Positions 21,376-27,519 of a DNA stretch of 64,000 bases are shown piece by piece (position 1 is the stretch's first letter; each line of letters opens with the position of its first letter). The notes below the pieces were generated by a model. That model was not told where the DNA came from. It did no database searches and saw nothing but the letters and a program-made list of their open reading frames with translations. The position numbers and the translations under genes were made by a program. The stretch comes from Escherichia coli (GTDB lineage Bacteria; Pseudomonadota; Gammaproteobacteria; Enterobacterales; Enterobacteriaceae), in the NCBI RefSeq assembly GCF_036507355.1, contig NZ_AP027877.1, one strand, 5' to 3'.

Positions 21376-23637
21376 TCATCCCCGACGCAAATTCTGCGCC
21401 GCCTGCACCATATTCGCCAGTGCTGCGCGGGTTTCTGGCCAGCCGCGCGTTTTCAGGCCACAGTCCGGGTTGACCCACAGGCGCTCTGCCGGAATGCGTT
21501 TTGCCGCTTTCTTCAGCAAGGCTTCAATCCATTCTACGCTCGGTACGTTTGGCGAGTGAATGTCATAGACGCCTGGACCGATTTCATTCGGATAATCAAA
21601 CTCTTCAAACGACTCCAGCAACTCCATGTCGGAACGCGAGGTTTCGATGGTGATGACGTCTGCGTCCAGTGCCGCAATCGAATCCATGATGTCGTTGAAC
21701 TCGCAATAACACATGTGAGTGTGGATTTGTGTGTCATCTTTCGCCACGGCGGCGTTGATACGGAAGGCCTCCACGCCCCACTGGAGATATGCATCCCAGT
21801 CGCTACGACGCAGCGGTAAACCTTCGCGCAGCGCCGGTTCATCAATCTGGATGATGCCAATTCCTGCGGCTTCCAGGTCCGCCACTTCATCACGCAGCGC
21901 CAGCGCAATTTGTTTGGCGATGGTTTCACGGCTGACATCTTCACGCGGGAACGACCAGCAGAGAATGGTCACCGGGCCAGTCAGCATCCCTTTCACCGGT
22001 TTATCAGTCAGAGATTGCGCATACTTCGCCCACTCAACGGTAATCGGTGCCGGGCGGCTAATATCACCAATGACAATCGGTGGCTTCACGCAGCGGGAAC
22101 CATAGCTCTGTACCCAACCGTTTTGCGTAAAGACAAACCCGTCGAGGTGCTCGCCAAAGTATTCCACCATGTCATTACGCTCGGCCTCGCCATGTACCAG
22201 CACATCCAGTCCCAAACGTTCCTGTTCAACAATGGCCTGCCTGATATGTTCTGCAATGCCCGTGCGGTAGTTATTGGCGTCGAGATTGCCCTTTTTGAAA
22301 TCCAGACGCAGGGTACGAATTTCCGTGGTTTGCGGGAAGGAACCAATCGTGGTGGTCGGCCACGCTGGCAGTTTAAAACGCGCACGCTGGGCTTCAGCAC
22401 GCACTTCATAGACATTCGCACGCTGGCTGTCCTGGGCGGTGATCGCCGCCAGACGCTTTTCTACCGCCGGATTATGTACACGAGTAGAGTGACGACGCGC
22501 CTGAATTGGGGCGCTCCACTCTGCCAGAGCTGCCGTGTCACCACTGTTCAGCGCATCGCGCAGCAGTGCCAGTTCATGGCATTTTTGTAGGGCGAAGGCA
22601 AACCAGCTTTTCACTTCTGCATCAAGACGCGTTTCCACGCTCAGGTCGATGGGGCTGTGCAGCAACGAGCAGGAAGATGCCACCCACAAATCACGTTTGC
22701 CGACAATGTCCTTAATTTGCGCATATTTCTCAGTAAGATCGGCGCGCCAGACGTTACGACCATTGATCAGACCCGCAGACAGCAGCCAGTCAGAAGGCAG
22801 GCGCTTGTGCAGTTCAACAACGTCATCTTTACCATGTACAAGGTCCACATGCAGCCCCTGAACAGGCAGCGCAGTAATCGTGTCGAGATTTGGCGTTACG
22901 CCTTCAAAATAGGTGGTCAGCAGCAGTTTCACCTGTCCCTGGAGCGCGTCGTAAGCGGGTTTGTATGCGTCCAGCCACGCCTGTGGTAGTTCCAGTACCA
23001 GCGCGGGTTCATCAATCTGTACCCACTCGATGCCGCGTTTCGCCAGTTCTGCCAGCACTTGCTGATAAACCGGCAGAATGTCGTTCAGCAGGCTAAGGCG
23101 GTCAAACTGTTCACCTTTCACTTTCCCCAGCCACAGCCAGGTAATCGGCCCCAGCAGCACAGGCTTAACGTTGTGGCCCAGCGCCAGCGCCTCGTCCACT
23201 TCCTCCAGCAGCTGCGTCCAGGTTAGTTTGAACTGTTGGCCTTTAACGAATTCCGGCACCATGTAGTGATAGTTGGTGTTAAACCATTTGGTCATTTCCG
23301 CTGCCGCCGCAGGTTCGCCAGTCGGCGCACGTCCACGACCAATACGGAACAGGGTGTCGATATCTACCGAACCGTCTTTGTTCTGATGACGCGCCGGAAC
23401 GTTACCCAGCAGCAGACTGGTGGTCAGAACATGATCGTACCAGGCAAAATCGCCCACCGGCAGCAGGTCGATACCCGCTTGCTTTTGTTGATCCCAGTGA
23501 CGAGCACGCAATTCACGCCCTACCGCCAGCAGTTCTTCACGCGTGGAGTTCCCCGCCCAATAACTCTCTTGCGCTTTTTTCAGCTCGCGACGCAGGCCAA
23601 CGCGAGGGAAACCGAGGGTGTGATTCAATATTGTCAT
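21376..23637 (-). CDS. metE: Cobalamin-independent methionine synthase MetE
   Basis: 753-aa [32 protein letters not shown]. Confidence 0.96.
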
Positions 23638-23785
23638 TTTTCTTCCTCTAATTATATGTAAATCCTATGGATTTTGAATTTAGGGAAGGCGGCAAGTTTA
23701 TTCATCCCTGGGAGCTTACTGAAGTAAGTGACCGGGGTGGAGAAACGCAGCCAACGTACCATAAATTTAAAAGACGAAGGATTTT

Positions 23786-23809
23786 AGCCGTCCAGATGTT
23801 TACACATCC
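23786..23809. promoter_or_regulatory. Tandem met-box-like 8-mers (candidate MetJ operator) in the metE-metR divergent control region
   Basis: AGCCGTCC-AGATGTTT-ACACATCC resemble tandem imperfect AGACGTCT boxes. Confidence 0.5.
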
Positions 23810-23872
23810 ATAATTGGCGGTTACTGTATATTCCTCAAGCGCAAATTATTCATGCCGAAGTGAAGGACTTTC

Positions 23873-24826
23873 ATGATCGAAGTAAAACACCTGAAAACGC
23901 TACAAGCGTTGCGGAACTGCGGCTCTCTCGCAGCCGCTGCGGCGACGTTGCATCAGACGCAATCCGCCCTGTCTCACCAGTTTAGCGATCTGGAACAACG
24001 CCTTGGCTTCCGGCTATTTGTGCGTAAGAGCCAGCCGCTACGCTTTACACCGCAGGGAGAAATCCTGTTGCAACTGGCAAACCAGGTGCTGCCGCAAATC
24101 AGCCAGGCACTGCAAGCCTGCAATGAACCGCAGCAGACGCGTCTGCGCATTGCCATTGAGTGCCATAGCTGTATTCAGTGGCTGACGCCCGCGTTAGAAA
24201 ATTTCCATAAGAACTGGCCGCAGGTAGAGATGGATTTTAAATCGGGCGTGACGTTTGACCCGCAGCCCGCGTTGCAACAGGGCGAGCTGGATCTGGTGAT
24301 GACCTCCGATATTCTGCCGCGCAGTGGCCTGCATTATTCGCCGATGTTCGATTATGAAGTACGCCTGGTGTTAGCACCTGACCATCCACTGGCGGTGAAA
24401 ACGCGTATTACACCGGAAGATCTCGCCAGCGAGACGCTGTTGATTTATCCGGTGCAGCGTAGCCGACTGGATGTCTGGCGGCATTTTCTTCAGCCGGCAG
24501 GCGTCAGCCCGTCACTGAAAAGCGTCGATAACACCTTATTGTTGATTCAGATGGTTGCCGCGCGGATGGGTATTGCCGCGCTACCACATTGGGTAGTAGA
24601 GAGTTTTGAGCGCCAGGATCTGGTGGTGACCAAAACCCTGGGCGAAGGCTTGTGGAGCCGGCTGTACGCCGCCGTGCGCGATGGCGAGCAGCGTCAGCCG
24701 ATTACAGAAGCATTTATTCGCTCAGCGCGCAATCACGCCTGCGATCATCTGCCGTTTGTGAAGAGCGCGGAGCGACCCACTTACGATGCACCCACAGTGA
24801 GGCCAGGATCACCAGCGCGCCTGTAA
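23873..24826 (+). CDS. metR: LysR-family transcriptional activator MetR
   Basis: 317-aa [48 protein letters not shown] with N-terminal HTH. Confidence 0.95.
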
Positions 24827-25613
24827 TAAACGTTGGCCAGTGCGGCTGTTGGTGCCAGATAGCCAGGTTTACCAGCAGCCCTGCCGGAACGTGCATATTA
24901 TTCATAATGCCCAGCGTTCCGGCGTCCACCTGCGTCGCGCCGTAGTTCCACATAAAGTAGCCAATCCCGGAAGCCACCACGCCAAGAAACACCAGAATGC
25001 CCCATTGCAACGTGGTTTGCGGCATTTTCTGCGCATTTCCCAGCAAGAACCATGCAATTACCGCCACCAGGAACGCGCCAAGATAGAACCACGCAAAGGC
25101 GTTATGCTGCGGCATCGGGCGAGTTTCCATCAGGCGTTTGTAACCCACCATGCCGATGGCAAAAGTGATATTGGAGAGTTGCACCAGCAGCAAGCCAGTC
25201 CAGAAATGGTCGGTGACCTGATCATAGCGAATAATCCCGGCACCAATCACCGCCAGCAAGGCGCTAAAAGCATAGCCCCAGCGCAGACGGCGCTTACTCA
25301 TGATGTCATAAATCAGCGTGATGTAGAGCGGCGTCAGTACGGTGAACAGCAGCAGTTCGGAGACCGTCAGGTAGAGATACGCGCGGAAACTCAGCATATA
25401 CATCACGCCGAGCTGCATCGCGCCCACCAGCATATACAGGCCGACCGTTTTCAGGCTATTGCCACGGGTACGCAGAAACGGCAGAAAAACGAGTGCCGCC
25501 AGGCCAACGCGCACCAGCACCGCAAAATAGCTATCGACGTGCCCCGCAAGGTACTCGCCATAAAAGCTAAAGGAGAAGGCCCACAGAATCGTGGTGATGA
25601 TAAGTAGCGCCAC
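24714..25613 (-). CDS. yigM: EamA/DMT-family inner membrane transporter YigM
   Basis: 299-aa polytopic ORF; 3' end overlaps the metR 3' end convergently. Confidence 0.85.
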
Positions 25614-25688: not shown

Positions 25689-26489
25689 TTACGATAAATA
25701 GAGTTTACGCAGATAATGCGGCACCGCGTCTTCGGCATTAGTACCAATCACTTCCAGCTCGGGATGAAGGTCTTTCAGACGCTGGTGCGCACTGCCCATA
25801 ATGCAGCCTTTCCCCGCCATCGACAGCATTTCGGCATCGTTCATCCCGTCACCAAACGCAATACAATCCTTCAGGCTGTAGCCCAGTTTCTTCGCCACCG
25901 CTTCCAGCGCATGGCCTTTTGAAACGCCGCCCGCCATCACTTCCAGACAGGTTAAGGTAGAGAAACTGACGTTGACGCGATCGCCCCAACGAGCGTTAAT
26001 CGCCTGCTCCAGCGGCAGCAGTTGTTCATGGGAATCGCAGGTGAAGAACACTTTGCTGACACCTTCCGGCTCCAGTAATCCAGGCTCATACAGCGCATAT
26101 TTGAACACCGCTTCTTTAAAAAAGCGCATCTCTTCCGGGCGATGGCGATTCATAAACCATTCGTCGTCGCGATAAACGTTAGTAATGATGTCTGGATTGT
26201 CGTTGACTACGCCAAACAGATCGCTGGCAATGTCGCGATCCAGGTTATGAGCAAAAATCAGATTACCATCCAGATCGTGAACGCGCGCACCATTGGAGGT
26301 AATCATGTAAGACTTAATCTCCAGATTATCGCGAATTTGCCCCACATCAACGTGGTGACGACCGGTCGCAAACACAAAGTTGATGCCGCGCGCGGTGAGC
26401 AGCTTCAGAGTTTCTTTGGCGTAAGGGGATAACGTATGGTCGGGAGAAAGTAACGTGCCATCTAAATCAGACGCAACAACCTGGTACAT
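25689..26489 (-). CDS. yigL: HAD-family sugar phosphatase YigL
   Basis: Start placed at MYQVVASDLDGTLLSPDH (HAD motif I DxDGT); 266 aa. Confidence 0.9.
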   Translation of the reverse strand: MYQVVASDLDGTLLSPDHTLSPYAKETLKLLTARGINFVFATGRHHVDVGQIRDNLEIKSYMITSNGARVHDLDGNLIFAHNLDRDIASDLFGVVNDNPDIITNVYRDDEWFMNRHRPEEMRFFKEAVFKYALYEPGLLEPEGVSKVFFTCDSHEQLLPLEQAINARWGDRVNVSFSTLTCLEVMAGGVSKGHALEAVAKKLGYSLKDCIAFGDGMNDAEMLSMAGKGCIMGSAHQRLKDLHPELEVIGTNAEDAVPHYLRKLYLS

Positions 26490-26496
26490 AAGAAAT

Positions 26497-27519
26497 TTAA
26501 ACCTCTGTAGAGCGGTTTCCGCTGGGTGAGTTATGCCTGTTGAAAAAATCAACGATGGCGTGGAGCGCGACTGAGCGCATTGCGTCCTTTTCAAAAAGGA
26601 TCTCATGGTAAGCACCTTTAATTACCAACGGCCGTCCTCCTTCGACAGGATGGCCCGCGGCGGTGCGGAGTTCACAAAAACGGTCATGCATGCGGTTATC
26701 CACCACGCGTTCCTCTTCAGCCTGCAAGAGAAGCGTTGGCGTGGCGTCATCACCCGCACCGGCTAACACCTGTTCGCCAGCCAGAATACTTTCGCGTACC
26801 CAATGGTAGGTCGGCCCACCGACGCGAATCGTTGGGTCATCAGCATAGAAGCGTAAGTTACGTCGATATCGCTGTCTGCTGTGGGTCAGTACGTTGATAG
26901 CAAACGGCAACGCGCGCCAGCGCCCGGTGCCTATTGCATAGCCATCACGGAAACGTGGATGCGCTTCGGCCCAGTTGAGGATCTGCCGTGCCATAAATGA
27001 CGGCATACGAATCACGATCCCAAACATTGGCGCAGTTAGCGCAATGGCGTCACATACACCTGGATGGCGTTGCAGAAATAATGTGGAGATCGCACCGCCC
27101 ATCGAATGTGCCAGTATATAGCGTTTACGCCACGGACCGGGCTGGACCTCCTGTTGCCAGAATGCCGCCAGATCATCAACATAATCATTAAAGCGATTAA
27201 CATGCCCGAGATGCGGATCGGCTAACAGGCGACCGGAACGTCCCTGCCCGCGATGGTCGATGATTAAGACATCAAACCCCAAATGGAACAAATCGTAGGC
27301 CAGTTCCGCATATTTTACGTAGCTCTCAATACGCCCCGGGCAGATGACTACCACCCGGTCATGGTGCTGTGCGCGAAAACGGACAAAGCGCACCGGAATG
27401 TCATCCACACCAGTAAACTCTGCTTCATCACGCTGACGCCAGAAATCAGTCAGCGGTCCCATGGTAAAAGCAGCAAACGCGTTTTCTCTTGTTTCCCAGT
27501 CTTTTTGCTGCTGAAACAT
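26497..27519 (-). CDS. pldB: Lysophospholipase L2 PldB
   Basis: 340-aa alpha/beta hydrolase ORF with GHSMG nucleophile elbow. Confidence 0.92.
   Translation of the reverse strand: MFQQQKDWETRENAFAAFTMGPLTDFWRQRDEAEFTGVDDIPVRFVRFRAQHHDRVVVICPGRIESYVKYAELAYDLFHLGFDVLIIDHRGQGRSGRLLADPHLGHVNRFNDYVDDLAAFWQQEVQPGPWRKRYILAHSMGGAISTLFLQRHPGVCDAIALTAPMFGIVIRMPSFMARQILNWAEAHPRFRDGYAIGTGRWRALPFAINVLTHSRQRYRRNLRFYADDPTIRVGGPTYHWVRESILAGEQVLAGAGDDATPTLLLQAEEERVVDNRMHDRFCELRTAAGHPVEGGRPLVIKGAYHEILFEKDAMRSVALHAIVDFFNRHNSPSGNRSTEV

Follow-up and report, generated by a model that had tools for sequence, protein, structure and literature searches.

Partitioned selection and proposed stop-codon locking in the conserved 113-bp convergent coding overlap of metR and bioP in Enterobacteriaceae

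Introduction

Among convergent overlaps of 5 nt or more between bacterial coding sequences, the commonest phase is (123:132), which accounts for 49% of cases (PMC2174442), and among overlaps longer than 60 bp, 54 of 178 candidates were judged not to be misannotations (PMC2478687). One pair in Escherichia coli has been remarked on in the context of deletion mutants by Côté et al. 2016 (mBio 7:e01714-16, PMC5120140), who noted that yigM overlaps metR substantially and that deletion of metR also disrupts yigM. In that study, the Keio metR deletion was synthetic lethal with bioA and sensitive to a BioA inhibitor, as was the yigM deletion, because deleting metR also removes the end of yigM (PMC5120140). 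The name yigM is the older one, and the gene is now called bioP; its product functions as a biotin transporter (PMC4049904, PMC5120140).

The metR-bioP overlap is thus already known, being annotated in RefSeq and K-12 and remarked on by Côté et al. 2016, whose metR-yigM overlap is the identical feature, 113 bp in K-12. As the published remark is a practical one, covering deletion mutants only, the analysis described here adds the conservation of the overlap, the partition of constraint between its two reading frames, the locking of its stop codons and the features of its transcript ends.

Results

The two genes and their shared DNA

The genes and their overlap lie in the window, by which we mean the whole 64,000-nucleotide stretch of E. 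coli DNA that was analysed (contig NZ_AP027877.1 of assembly GCF_036507355.1).

23873..24826, plus strand: metR, LysR-type activator of metE/metH; ATG start, 317 aa, stop TAA at 24824-24826
24714..25613, minus strand: bioP (yigM), biotin transporter of the DMT/EamA family; GTG start, 299 aa, stop TAA at 24716-24714
24714..24826, both strands: the 113-bp convergent coding overlap, from ORF calls, sequence and the alignment of loci

Pfam domains, thousands of length-conserved homologues, structures of MetR domains and the published function of BioP establish both as real protein-coding genes. MetR carries an N-terminal HTH_1 domain (aa 5-63, E = 4.6e-18) and a LysR substrate-binding domain (LysR_substrate, aa 86-288, E = 1.4e-46), and with metE adjacent and divergent, upstream of metR (21376..23637, minus strand), the protein is assigned to the LysR-type MetR regulators. 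Its residues 1-92 match PDB 5fo5 (MetR residues 1-92), and PDB 4ab5, the regulatory domain of Neisseria meningitidis MetR, aligns to aa 87-296. An AlphaFold2 model of MetR was unusable (mean pLDDT 39.6, shallow alignment of 16 sequences), and the 4ab5 sequence match was therefore used in its place. BioP is 99.7% identical to the RefSeq bioP product, and its membership in the BioP/YigM transporters follows from two EamA repeats (two EamA stretches in Pfam), orthology to E. coli YigM and ten long helices in an AlphaFold2 model with a mean pLDDT of 89, the last of these helices spanning aa 259-283.

The initial annotation held that the coding 3' ends of the two genes overlap by 113 bp, that both proteins have their expected full lengths and that the overlap is real rather than a mis-call. 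The ORF list, the sequence and the RefSeq annotation confirm that the ends share exactly 113 bp on opposite strands, with metR codon positions 1, 2 and 3 facing bioP positions 1, 3 and 2, a phase written as (123:132) in the nomenclature of Lillo & Krakauer (PMC2174442). A second in-frame TAA directly follows the metR stop, at 24827-24829. The RefSeq annotation of E. coli strains shows this geometry too, and in K-12 MG1655 bioP (4011076..4011975, plus strand) and metR (4011863..4012816, minus strand) likewise overlap by 113 bp; 5425 of 5426 complete E. coli genomes match the window at 95-99.3% identity. The lengths of 317 and 299 aa agree with those expected from the ORFs and orthologues. The view that the overlap is no mis-call is borne out by public annotation, by published genetics (PMC5120140) and by the comparison across species that the initial annotation had proposed as a check, in which both reading frames were found to be kept in several Enterobacterales families.

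Phylogenetic distribution

Loci from 80 different Enterobacteriaceae species were compared together with the window and two E. coli RefSeq records. Of these 83 loci, 79 have an overlap of 113 bp; in the other four it measures 116 bp (twice), 98 bp and 68 bp, and no indels were found across the overlap region. Proteins of 317 and 299 aa are the norm in nearly all sampled Enterobacteriaceae species, which rules out a 3' extension confined to one genome, the criterion of Pallejà et al. 2008. Beyond this family, the overlap measures 113 bp in Yersinia, 95 bp in Rahnella, 116 bp in Nissabacter, 98 bp in Dickeya, 89-92 bp in Hafnia and 116 bp in Providencia, and it is absent in the compared loci of Serratia, Erwiniaceae and Plesiomonas. 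Because the C-terminal extension relative to Erwiniaceae, Vibrio and Plesiomonas is common to whole families, it represents an evolutionary state and no annotation error. From parsimony over a family tree taken from the literature, we infer that the overlap was ancestral for most of Enterobacterales and was later resolved in Serratia and Erwiniaceae.

For Serratia, the resemblance of protein tails would suggest that the genes were separated through a tandem duplication. No similarity was detectable at the DNA level, where local alignment of the MetR-tail DNA to the reverse-complemented downstream bioP end scored within shuffles, and a duplication is thus at most suggested by the protein tails. 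A locus considered as a distant overlap-bearing relative (L086, BioP 57% identical) proved to be a contig resembling Dickeya and carrying an artefactual frameshift inside it, and adds no phylogenetic depth.

Constraint in each frame

Constraint was measured by entropy and by parsimony steps per site, split by codon position, and divides the overlap into the following segments.

24720..24761, both strands: metR-frame segment, MetR R283-V296 (end of the folded regulatory domain) opposite BioP tail aa 285-298
24762..24779, both strands: doubly constrained core, MetR K297-P302 opposite BioP W279-S284, holding the invariant GCGGAGCGACCCA
24780..24826, both strands: bioP-frame segment, BioP transmembrane helix 10 (TM10, aa 263-278) opposite MetR tail aa 303-317 and the metR stop

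Selection is partitioned between the frames, with one frame ruling each half of the overlap and only about 12-18 nt in its middle constrained in both. At metR codon positions 1, 2 and 3, parsimony steps per site were 1.9, 0.6 and 12.5 in metR-only sequence; 0.8, 0.55 and 6.2 in overlap part A; 2.1, 9.1 and 1.5 in overlap part B; and 2.4, 13.5 and 0.8 in bioP-only sequence. Entropy and steps by codon position in 24720..24761 follow the metR-only pattern, and the pattern by codon position in 24780..24826 is that of bioP-only sequence. The hold of the metR frame over the first ~48 bp comes from their coding for the final helix of the MetR regulatory domain (aa 283-296), and that of the bioP frame over the last ~47 bp from their coding for BioP TM10.

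Synonymous sites are not slowed across the whole overlap, as dual coding would have it; slowing was confined to the 12-18 nt at the centre and to the bioP stop with E299. The metR synonymous sites opposite the BioP tail are ~25-30% slower than elsewhere, a non-significant difference, and the bioP synonymous sites in 24780..24826 evolve at a nearly neutral rate (13.1 vs 15.6 steps, p=0.23), such that the slowing of sites facing the partner's tail is non-significant against gene-wide rates in both cases (p = 0.12-0.23). Within the core, the block pairing MetR A299-P302 with BioP W279-P282 has a single variable site, the wobble position of E300 (2 steps), with all other synonymous sites of the central block at 0 steps (percentile 0.016-0.018), and the edges (MetR K297-S298, BioP R283-S284) vary slightly (2-5 steps). 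A few bioP wobble sites opposite MetR D305, P311 and S313 are also still (0-2 steps); considered as evidence of tail function, they are too few to withstand multiple testing.

Protein ends

One further segment, at the metR-ruled end of the overlap, holds the end of bioP itself.

24714..24719, both strands: bioP stop and BioP E299, opposite MetR F281-I282 (TTT ATT); all bases invariant in 77 sequences

The bioP stop is the reverse complement of the TTA inside the codons for Phe281 and Ile282, which do not vary in MetR; at the wobble sites of both F281 and I282 the count of parsimony steps is 0, and BioP E299 and the bioP TAA are themselves invariant. At the opposite end, the metR stop faces BioP Ile/Leu263 followed by a codon beginning with A. 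Stops locked in this manner by conserved partner codons would explain the stable lengths of 317 aa, 299 aa and 113 bp.

The protein tails themselves vary among relatives. BioP has 280-288 aa in Serratia, Erwinia, Pantoea and Mixta, where the tail is absent, and 292-294 aa in Microbulbifer and Vibrio, where the tails are unrelated and the gene does not adjoin metR. Across 50 BioP homologues the family core stops after TM10, and model confidence falls over the same region, with a mean pLDDT of 55 over aa 281-290 and 44 over 291-299, and values below 50 throughout 288-299. Alleles that naturally truncate BioP, to 278, 284 or 285 aa, have been found among E. coli, Salmonella, Kluyvera and Citrobacter; the W279* allele was found in 0 of 5423 complete E. 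coli genomes. MetR has 311-312 aa in both Rahnella and Dickeya; in taxa without the overlap its length is 302-313 aa, and its tail is variable or shorter in other genera. The apparent conservation of the BioP tail is mostly mechanical, as it arises from invariant MetR residues on the opposite strand.

RNA features beyond the bioP stop

No terminator-like site for intrinsic termination was found on either strand in 24500-25100, and no GC-rich hairpin with U-tracts that could serve as a shared bidirectional terminator was found between or within the gene ends. Searches in and around the overlap yielded no relevant Rfam families, and the predicted RNA structure of the overlap itself is no better than that of shuffles (z -0.4 and -0.15). 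Adams et al. 2021 place a region of Rho-dependent termination at K-12 4011704 on the bioP strand (Rho score 5.07, p = 1.3e-12), a coarse coordinate drawn from 800-nt windows; that study lists the Rho region only, with no curated 3' end for metR or yigM. Neither metR nor bioP is present in the SMRT-Cappable-seq supplements.

Beyond the bioP stop, two stem-loops were predicted in bioP-sense RNA.

24658..24701, minus strand: stem-loop 1, beginning 13 nt past the bioP stop, over metR codons 262-277
24614..24640, minus strand: stem-loop 2, over metR codons 248-256

Stem-loop 1 has a predicted dG of -28.1 kcal/mol (z -3.79), with 96.4% of cells paired in 46 sequences and 9 compensated cells vs 2.1 in shuffles, and the R263 codon within it is CGG or CGA in 86 of 105 overlap-bearing sequences. 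Stem-loop 2 (dG -17.1 kcal/mol, z -3.46) has almost invariant pairs, and the stem-loops at 24614-24701 are without a U-tract. Compared with Erwiniaceae, taxa that carry the overlap have both stem-loops more stable by about 9-10 kcal/mol; the comparison is equivalent to one or two independent contrasts between clades (Erwiniaceae, Serratia), and covariation support is moderate. The largest gap, again with overlap taxa more stable, relates to stem-loop 2 and lies in folding windows that start at codons 241-247 (-8.8 to -10.2 kcal/mol), and stem-loop 1 is one of the two metR regions with the largest stability excess over Erwiniaceae. To judge from these predicted folds, synonymous sites of metR appear to be used for 3' stem-loops of the convergent neighbour's mRNA. 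A candidate structure past the metR stop (plus strand, inside bioP) folds well in the single sequence (z -2.94) and was rejected, as 46 sequences together give it only a weak consensus (-10.3 kcal/mol, one compensated pair).

Discussion

The metR-bioP pair is best explained as a genuine, ancient tail-to-tail overlap of unrelated genes that is mostly a frozen accident and no designed dual-coding element, the BioP and MetR tails behaving as passengers that are dispensable in nature; we place the probability of this whole explanation at roughly 0.75. Under this explanation, both proteins would be read through the shared DNA, with a structured MetR helix and BioP TM10 encoded there and BioP function abolished by metR deletion. 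The cytoplasmic tail of BioP would take whatever the antisense of the metR-ruled ~48 bp gives, the MetR tail would be a passenger on the bioP-ruled ~47 bp, and the stop codons, held by the partner's codons, would fix both protein lengths. Because the essential end of each gene lies inside the other, the pair would presumably be hard to separate. No room would be left for a normal intergenic terminator, bioP-sense transcription would be ended by Rho, as the published data indicate, and the two stem-loops directly past the bioP stop probably stabilise or define the 3' end of the bioP mRNA. Some selection may nonetheless act on the tails, since truncated BioP is rare and E299 and the TAA stop are invariant.

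The extra C-terminal residues of E. coli MetR and BioP relative to the outgroups Erwiniaceae, Vibrio and Plesiomonas might be taken to mean that one gene really ends or starts elsewhere and that no coding DNA is shared. This reading is effectively refuted, as start codons are irrelevant in a tail-to-tail overlap and both stops are unambiguous, the overlap includes indispensable parts of each protein (the conserved MetR helix 283-296 aligned to 4ab5, and BioP TM10), both lengths are conserved in almost all sampled Enterobacteriaceae species, and deletion of metR destroys BioP function (PMC5120140). It is unlikely that the overlap is instead kept for the sake of two functional tails (MetR 303-317, with a Pro-rich RPxxDxPTxxPxSP pattern, and BioP 285-299). 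Two-frame constraint is clear in the central 12-18 nt, E299 and the TAA stop do not vary, W279* is missing from the 5423 complete E. coli genomes, and Serratia MetR tails, in the absence of an overlap, still resemble those of overlap-bearing relatives (ARP....VKPL). However, the synonymous sites facing the tails evolve at rates not significantly different from the gene-wide ones, the unusually still wobble sites opposite D305, P311 and S313 are no commoner than multiple testing predicts, and Erwiniaceae, Serratia, Hafnia, Dickeya and Rahnella have other tails or none. The low pLDDT of BioP 288-299 and the mechanical origin of most BioP tail conservation also argue against functional tails.

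Convergent overlapping transcripts can interfere with each other's expression, and biotin synthesis consumes SAM (BioC, BioA, BioB), which offers a conceivable rationale for a regulatory coupling in which convergent transcription or 3'-end pairing makes metR and bioP expression interdependent, for instance by linking methionine and SAM to biotin uptake. Transcripts reaching their own stops would be mutually complementary over at least 113 nt, Rho limits bioP-sense read-through into metR, and antisense RNA crosstalk is reported for the comparable convergent pair arfA-mscL (PMC10070815). We nevertheless regard such coupling as improbable, with odds of about the order that one would give a long shot, as a literature search turned up no direct evidence of interference at metR-bioP, Serratia and Erwiniaceae have separated the genes and evidently manage without an overlap, the overlap has no unusual RNA structure, and the conserved stem-loops lie outside it and fit 3'-end protection equally well. 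Slightly more doubtful still is a conserved post-transcriptional module formed by the overlap and the two stem-loops, in which the bioP 3' end would be set inside metR and metR transcription, rising when MetJ/SAM repression is lifted, would modulate the stability or termination of bioP mRNA. Were this true, biotin uptake would be coupled to methionine/SAM status, and the overlap would be maintained for that coupling, beyond inertia.

As a mostly frozen accident, the locus offers a clean, well-sampled case of a long antisense overlap that has lasted very long under little two-frame selection, with the dispensable tail of each gene placed over the indispensable end of the other and the stops held by partner codons. 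Serratia and Erwiniaceae, where the overlap has apparently been undone in nature, let one see what is relaxed once the genes separate. Known methionine and biotin biology is left unchanged by these findings; the practical consequence is that deleting or engineering metR or bioP damages the other gene. In the standard Keio design, said to be that of Baba et al. in 2006, the metR deletion reportedly removes BioP 270-299 and the yigM deletion removes MetR 288-317. Hence what is scored as a phenotype of one gene may in truth be due to its partner, as with the metR-bioA synthetic lethality of Côté et al.; a literature search for methionine auxotrophy in the Keio yigM deletion found nothing.

Several described systems share individual features with this locus. 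Stem-loops are reportedly found at the 3' ends of Rho-terminated transcripts, as Dar and Sorek are said to have described in 2018, and the predicted bioP stem-loops are like this type in being GC-rich, without a U-tract, just downstream of the stop and in a Rho-dependent region. They differ in lying inside the coding sequence of the convergent partner and in being built from its synonymous sites, and their link to the bioP 3' end is a predicted one. The panF-yhdT pair shows cross-effects in deletion collections, as metR-bioP does, with a much shorter overlap of 10 nt, and holD-rimI is likewise a conserved enterobacterial coding overlap, although co-directional and shorter (32-56 bp). The arfA-mscL pair of E. 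coli is convergent like metR-bioP, with transcripts complementary at their 3' ends (PMC10070815); antisense RNA crosstalk is reported there, whereas at metR-bioP the coding regions themselves overlap and crosstalk is hypothetical.

The locus also resembles the conserved long convergent overlaps treated by Pallejà et al. 2008, Lillo & Krakauer 2007 and Rogozin et al. 2002 (as cited in PMC2478687), which like metR-bioP are tail-to-tail and arise through 3' extension past an old stop. The metR-bioP pair is absent from the main text of PMC2478687, and counts among the small number of genuine convergent overlaps longer than 60 bp. Most real cases in Pallejà et al. are conserved in very close species only, whereas the metR-bioP overlap spans at least five Enterobacterales families.

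Gene ends and conservation of the overlap

The 3' ends of the two convergent genes are arranged as follows.

23873..24826, + strand, metR: ATG start, TAA stop, 317 aa; Pfam HTH_1 and LysR_substrate
24714..25613, - strand, bioP (formerly yigM): GTG start, TAA stop, 299 aa; Pfam EamA in two stretches
24714-24826, both strands, metR/bioP coding overlap: 113 bp

The open reading frames and the sequence confirm the shared 113 bp exactly as the initial annotation gave it, and protein searches show that the 317 aa of MetR and 299 aa of BioP, which it had taken as expected lengths, are standard across genera. The overlap is real in sequence and already in public annotation: the geometry is identical in the RefSeq annotation of two strains, K-12 MG1655 carries bioP at 4011076..4011975 (+) and metR at 4011863..4012816 (-), and the 2-kb metR-bioP region is matched at 95-99.3% identity in 5425 of 5426 complete E. 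coli genomes. A scan with one genome per species yielded 80 Enterobacteriaceae loci, 83 when the window and two E. coli RefSeq records are included. Conservation of both frames across species, which had been proposed as a check, is borne out in this set, with an overlap of 113 bp in 79 of the 83 loci, 116 bp in two, 98 bp in one (MetR of 312 aa) and 68 bp in one (BioP of 284 aa), and zero indels between the two start codons.

In the complete genome of E. coli Z135-6 (match H12, NZ_CP159632.1), the region was matched in two pieces with only 41% covered, and the annotation of metR there is split into a hypothetical protein and a LysR-family regulator, suggesting that metR, and hence possibly the end of bioP, is disrupted. 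One of 5430 places for the region lies on a record classed as plasmid; this copy may be match H10 (NZ_CP170379.1, 294 kb), and either a large plasmid/chromid or a piece of chromosome binned wrongly could account for it. A 255-aa ORF at 24840-25607 (+) runs antisense to nearly all of bioP in a frame that differs from that of metR, and was taken to arise mechanically, as an antisense ORF in a codon-biased gene. The mechanical yigL ORF (25689-26615, -) has 308 aa versus 266 aa (801 nt) for RefSeq YigL, whose annotated start is internal to this longest ORF. In the metE-metR intergenic region (23658-23832, +), two Rfam matches, Ysr49 at 27.9 bits against a gathering score of 95 and V_AS5 at 26.9 bits against 96, fall far under threshold and are probably chance.

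Division of constraint between the two frames

Parsimony steps per site were counted on an alignment of 77 sequences (76 Enterobacteriaceae species loci and the window), using a neighbour-joining tree built from the non-overlapping parts.

Parsimony steps per site at metR codon positions 1 / 2 / 3
metR alone: 1.9 / 0.6 / 12.5
Overlap, first half (MetR aa 281-300): 0.8 / 0.55 / 6.2
Overlap, second half (MetR aa 301-317): 2.1 / 9.1 / 1.5
bioP alone: 2.4 / 13.5 / 0.8

By these counts, the pattern of change follows metR in the first half of the overlap and bioP in the second. When synonymous rates were compared within degeneracy classes at conserved residues, metR four-fold sites facing BioP 285-298 were mildly and non-significantly slower (10.1 versus 13.9 steps, p=0.12), two-fold sites facing the same residues likewise showed no significant difference (7.2 versus 9.5 steps, p=0.15), and bioP sites facing MetR 303-317 were near neutral (13.1 versus 15.6 steps, p=0.23). 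The central block, MetR A299-P302 and BioP W279-P282, lies within the invariant GCGGAGCGACCCA at 24767-24779 and is nearly unchanged, with only the wobble site of E300 varying (2 steps); the bioP stop and E299, facing MetR F281-I282, are frozen. Apart from the 6 nt at the bioP stop, true two-frame constraint is thus confined to some 12-18 nt of the 113.

Because metR codon positions 1, 2 and 3 face bioP positions 1, 3 and 2, any NTY codon followed by an ANN codon is a stop on the opposite strand, and each stop is thus held by codons that the partner needs. On the opposite strand, the TTA within the codons of the invariant MetR Phe281-Ile282, T[TT A]TT, reads as the bioP stop TAA, and the alternative TTC-A would give TGA, likewise a stop. 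The metR stop T[AA] faces the last two bases of BioP Ile/Leu263 (ATT, ATC or CTT) together with the initial A of codon 264, which encodes Thr or Ile; where species alternate between TAA and TGA in metR, the bioP counterpart is a silent ATT/ATC change. The earlier metR stop of Dickeya and Rahnella is made by an Ile-Ile or Met-Ile pair that comes earlier in BioP transmembrane helix 10 (TM10). The fixed lengths of 317 and 299 aa would then be a by-product of this locking.

Constrained ends and variable tails

Residues 283-296 of MetR belong to the folded regulatory domain; the solved structure of this domain from N. meningitidis MetR (4ab5) aligns to E. coli residues 87-296. For BioP, an AlphaFold2 model from a 50-sequence alignment (mean pLDDT 89, pTM 0.85) has a helix at 259-283, placing residues 263-278 within the predicted last transmembrane helix, and gives pLDDT below 50 to residues 288-299. 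The BioP family core stops after this last helix, with unrelated tails among 50 members down to 34% identity. The tail motif QTADDRRRD is the antisense reading of an invariant 11-residue MetR stretch, so its apparent conservation is mechanical. The E. coli-type MetR tail is in turn the antisense reading of TM10, and in Serratia, where this frame is unused, the same stretch still reads APPNGDAPTAKRQSPPRR followed by two stops.

Both tails can be lost. In Serratia, Erwinia, Pantoea and Mixta, BioP is only 280-288 aa long, and truncated forms occur in overlap-bearing species, at 284-285 aa in Kluyvera, Citrobacter, Salmonella Gaminara and one species representative, and at 278 aa in E. coli and Salmonella (Salmonella-type protein P0427). 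The E. coli 278-aa allele (loci L091-L093, positions 2335-2337) is W279*, a TGG>TAG change equal to window 24778 C>T and silent in metR (P302 CCC>CCT), which leaves only 50 bp of overlap. The assembly collection has this allele in 119 indexed blocks, but 0 of 5423 complete RefSeq E. coli genomes carry it, a rarity that possibly reflects weak selection for full-length BioP. The MetR proteins of Rahnella, Dickeya and Pectobacterium run to 311-312 aa, and those of taxa without the overlap to 302-313 aa, with other tails.

MetR proteins P0008 (Citrobacter braakii, 323 aa) and P0091 (Salmonella type, 332 aa, 7 members) leave the normal tail at residues 297-298 and are unrelated thereafter, consistent with frameshifts in the shared region that would alter the BioP tail too; they could be real alleles or sequencing errors. 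At MetR position 249 (24617-24619), the window has Asp (ERQDLVV), while 15 of 15 other aligned sequences and other E. coli seen have Gly (ERQGLVV) in a nearly invariant column; the closest E. coli match to this MetR differs by one residue.

The standard Keio design, reportedly that of Baba and colleagues from 2006, is said to take out window 23876-24805 in the metR deletion, so that BioP residues 270-299 and the stop codon would be lost. Côté et al. (PMC5120140), who remark that a substantial part of yigM overlaps metR, show that this deletion is synthetic lethal with bioA and confers sensitivity to a BioA inhibitor. They blame both phenotypes on concomitant yigM disruption, and the phenotypes thereby provide genetic evidence that BioP needs the shared DNA. 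The role of YigM as biotin transporter traces to Ringlstetter 2010 and Finkenwirth et al. 2013.

Origin and persistence of the overlap

Arrangement of metR and bioP by lineage
Dickeya: overlap 98 bp
Yersinia: overlap 113 bp
Rahnella: overlap 95 bp
Nissabacter: overlap 116 bp
Providencia: overlap 116 bp; MetR 73% identical
Hafnia: overlap 89-92 bp; MetR 335 aa, with an insertion of ~18 aa in the tail
Serratia: convergent neighbours, no overlap; gap 4-36 nt
Erwinia, Pantoea, Mixta: convergent neighbours, no overlap; gap 476-884 nt or more
Plesiomonas: convergent neighbours, no overlap; gap 216 nt; MetR-like protein 55% identical

A metagenome scan using a MetR motif pattern supplied the Nissabacter, Providencia and Hafnia loci, whose taxa were named by exact-sequence cluster look-up. 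In Vibrio and Microbulbifer, the BioP homologue lies away from metR altogether. All overlap-bearing families have the identical junction, with the bioP stop within the MetR Phe281-Ile/Thr282 codons, and Serratia groups in the Yersiniaceae with Yersinia, Rahnella and Nissabacter. From this shared junction and the position of Serratia, we infer a single early origin in Enterobacterales, reversed later in Serratia and Erwiniaceae; the direction of change follows from parsimony and published family relationships. These relationships are reportedly those of Adeolu and colleagues from 2016.

In the two Hafnia loci (L169, L197), the MetR insertion (EIYHSKIANGLSPHDEQSS) lies between VRDA and the antisense-TM10 tail, and the BioP stop falls inside it, so the overlap no longer reaches the MetR folded core.

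A frozen accident is the best-supported picture of this arrangement. An ancestral deletion or stop loss would have run both genes into each other up to the next stop; the outcome would have been tolerated because each added tail is largely dispensable, and separation would have become hard since the essential end of each gene sits inside the other. Misannotation of either gene end is excluded, given the RefSeq annotation and the conserved frames, and the initial judgement that the overlap is no mis-call therefore holds. A less likely alternative is that both C-terminal tails are functional; its support comes down to the central block, E299 and how seldom truncations occur. Mutual transcriptional interference, raised initially as a possible consequence, is plausible in general for such a pair and hypothetical at this locus. 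Lineages with separated genes show that the overlap is not required.

Transcript ends and embedded stem-loops

A simple scan found no hairpin-plus-U-tract site in or beside the overlap, and Rfam placed no family there; on neither strand does the 113-bp stretch fold better than its shuffles (z -0.4 and -0.15). On the bioP-sense strand, Adams et al. 2021 describe a region of Rho termination that peaks at K-12 4011704 (window ~24985), where coverage falls from 98 upstream to 21 downstream without bicyclomycin and is 300 and 326 with it (Rho score 5.07, p = 1.3e-12, 800-nt windows); they list no curated 3' end of metR or bioP. We infer that bioP-sense transcription is stopped by Rho after ribosomes leave at the bioP stop, within antisense metR.

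Sliding 100-nt folds were run over 31 sequences (30 species loci and the window), and the most stable windows of the 1.7-kb metR-bioP span fell at 24603-24713 on both strands. This stability is due to two stem-loops.

24658-24701, bioP-sense RNA, stem-loop 1: -28.1 kcal/mol, z -3.79
24614-24640, bioP-sense RNA, stem-loop 2: -17.1 kcal/mol, z -3.46

Stem-loop 1 begins 13 nt past the stop on the bioP-sense RNA, and 96.4% of its cells are paired in 46 sequences. Four pairs are compensated versus 1.7 in shuffles (16 of 500 reach four), as are nine cells versus 2.1 (0 of 500 reach nine). It spans metR codons 262-277, whose encoded peptide is almost invariant, so the structure depends on codon choice. 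At Arg263, the 105 distinct overlap-bearing sequences use CGG (52), CGA (34), CGC (10) and CGT (8); the first two are rarely used in E. coli, and CGA preserves a G-U pair on the bioP-sense strand only. Erwiniaceae encode the same peptide with bioP >470 nt away and mostly use CGC or CGT at Arg263, and the 48-nt segment has a mean energy of -15.8 kcal/mol there versus -25.4 kcal/mol in overlap-bearing sequences, a comparison that amounts to one or two clade contrasts. As a control, across 141 windows of metR the group energy difference averages -0.64 (sd 2.5), and the only strong outliers are stem-loop windows, at -8.5 to -9.1 for those starting at codons 261-263 and, for stem-loop 2, -6.7 to -10.2 for those starting at codons 241-247; overall GC content of the two groups is equal (0.586 and 0.595). 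We read the stem-loops, from these sequence comparisons, as putative 3' structures of the bioP mRNA embedded in metR synonymous sites, which may stabilise the Rho-terminated transcript or help set its end. The region after the metR stop, inside bioP, held no convincingly conserved structure.

Where the genes stand apart, a GC-rich hairpin occupies the short spacer. In locus L182 (Serratia liquefaciens type), and likewise at L207, it lies between the two stops, which are 32 nt apart in L182, and reads GGGCAGCtcgcgcttgGGCTGCCC then GTTTATTT; it looks like an ordinary terminator common to both convergent genes.

Comparison with known overlaps

The overlap is already annotated and published and is not new as a kind of feature. 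The details added here are modest, namely the partition of constraint, the locking of stop codons, the range of lineages with the overlap and its secondary resolution in some of them, and the stem-loops embedded in metR. Long conserved convergent overlaps are uncommon as a class (Pallejà et al., PMC2478687), and the metR/bioP phase is (123:132), the commonest among convergent overlaps of at least 5 nt, at 49% (Lillo & Krakauer 2007, PMC2174442).
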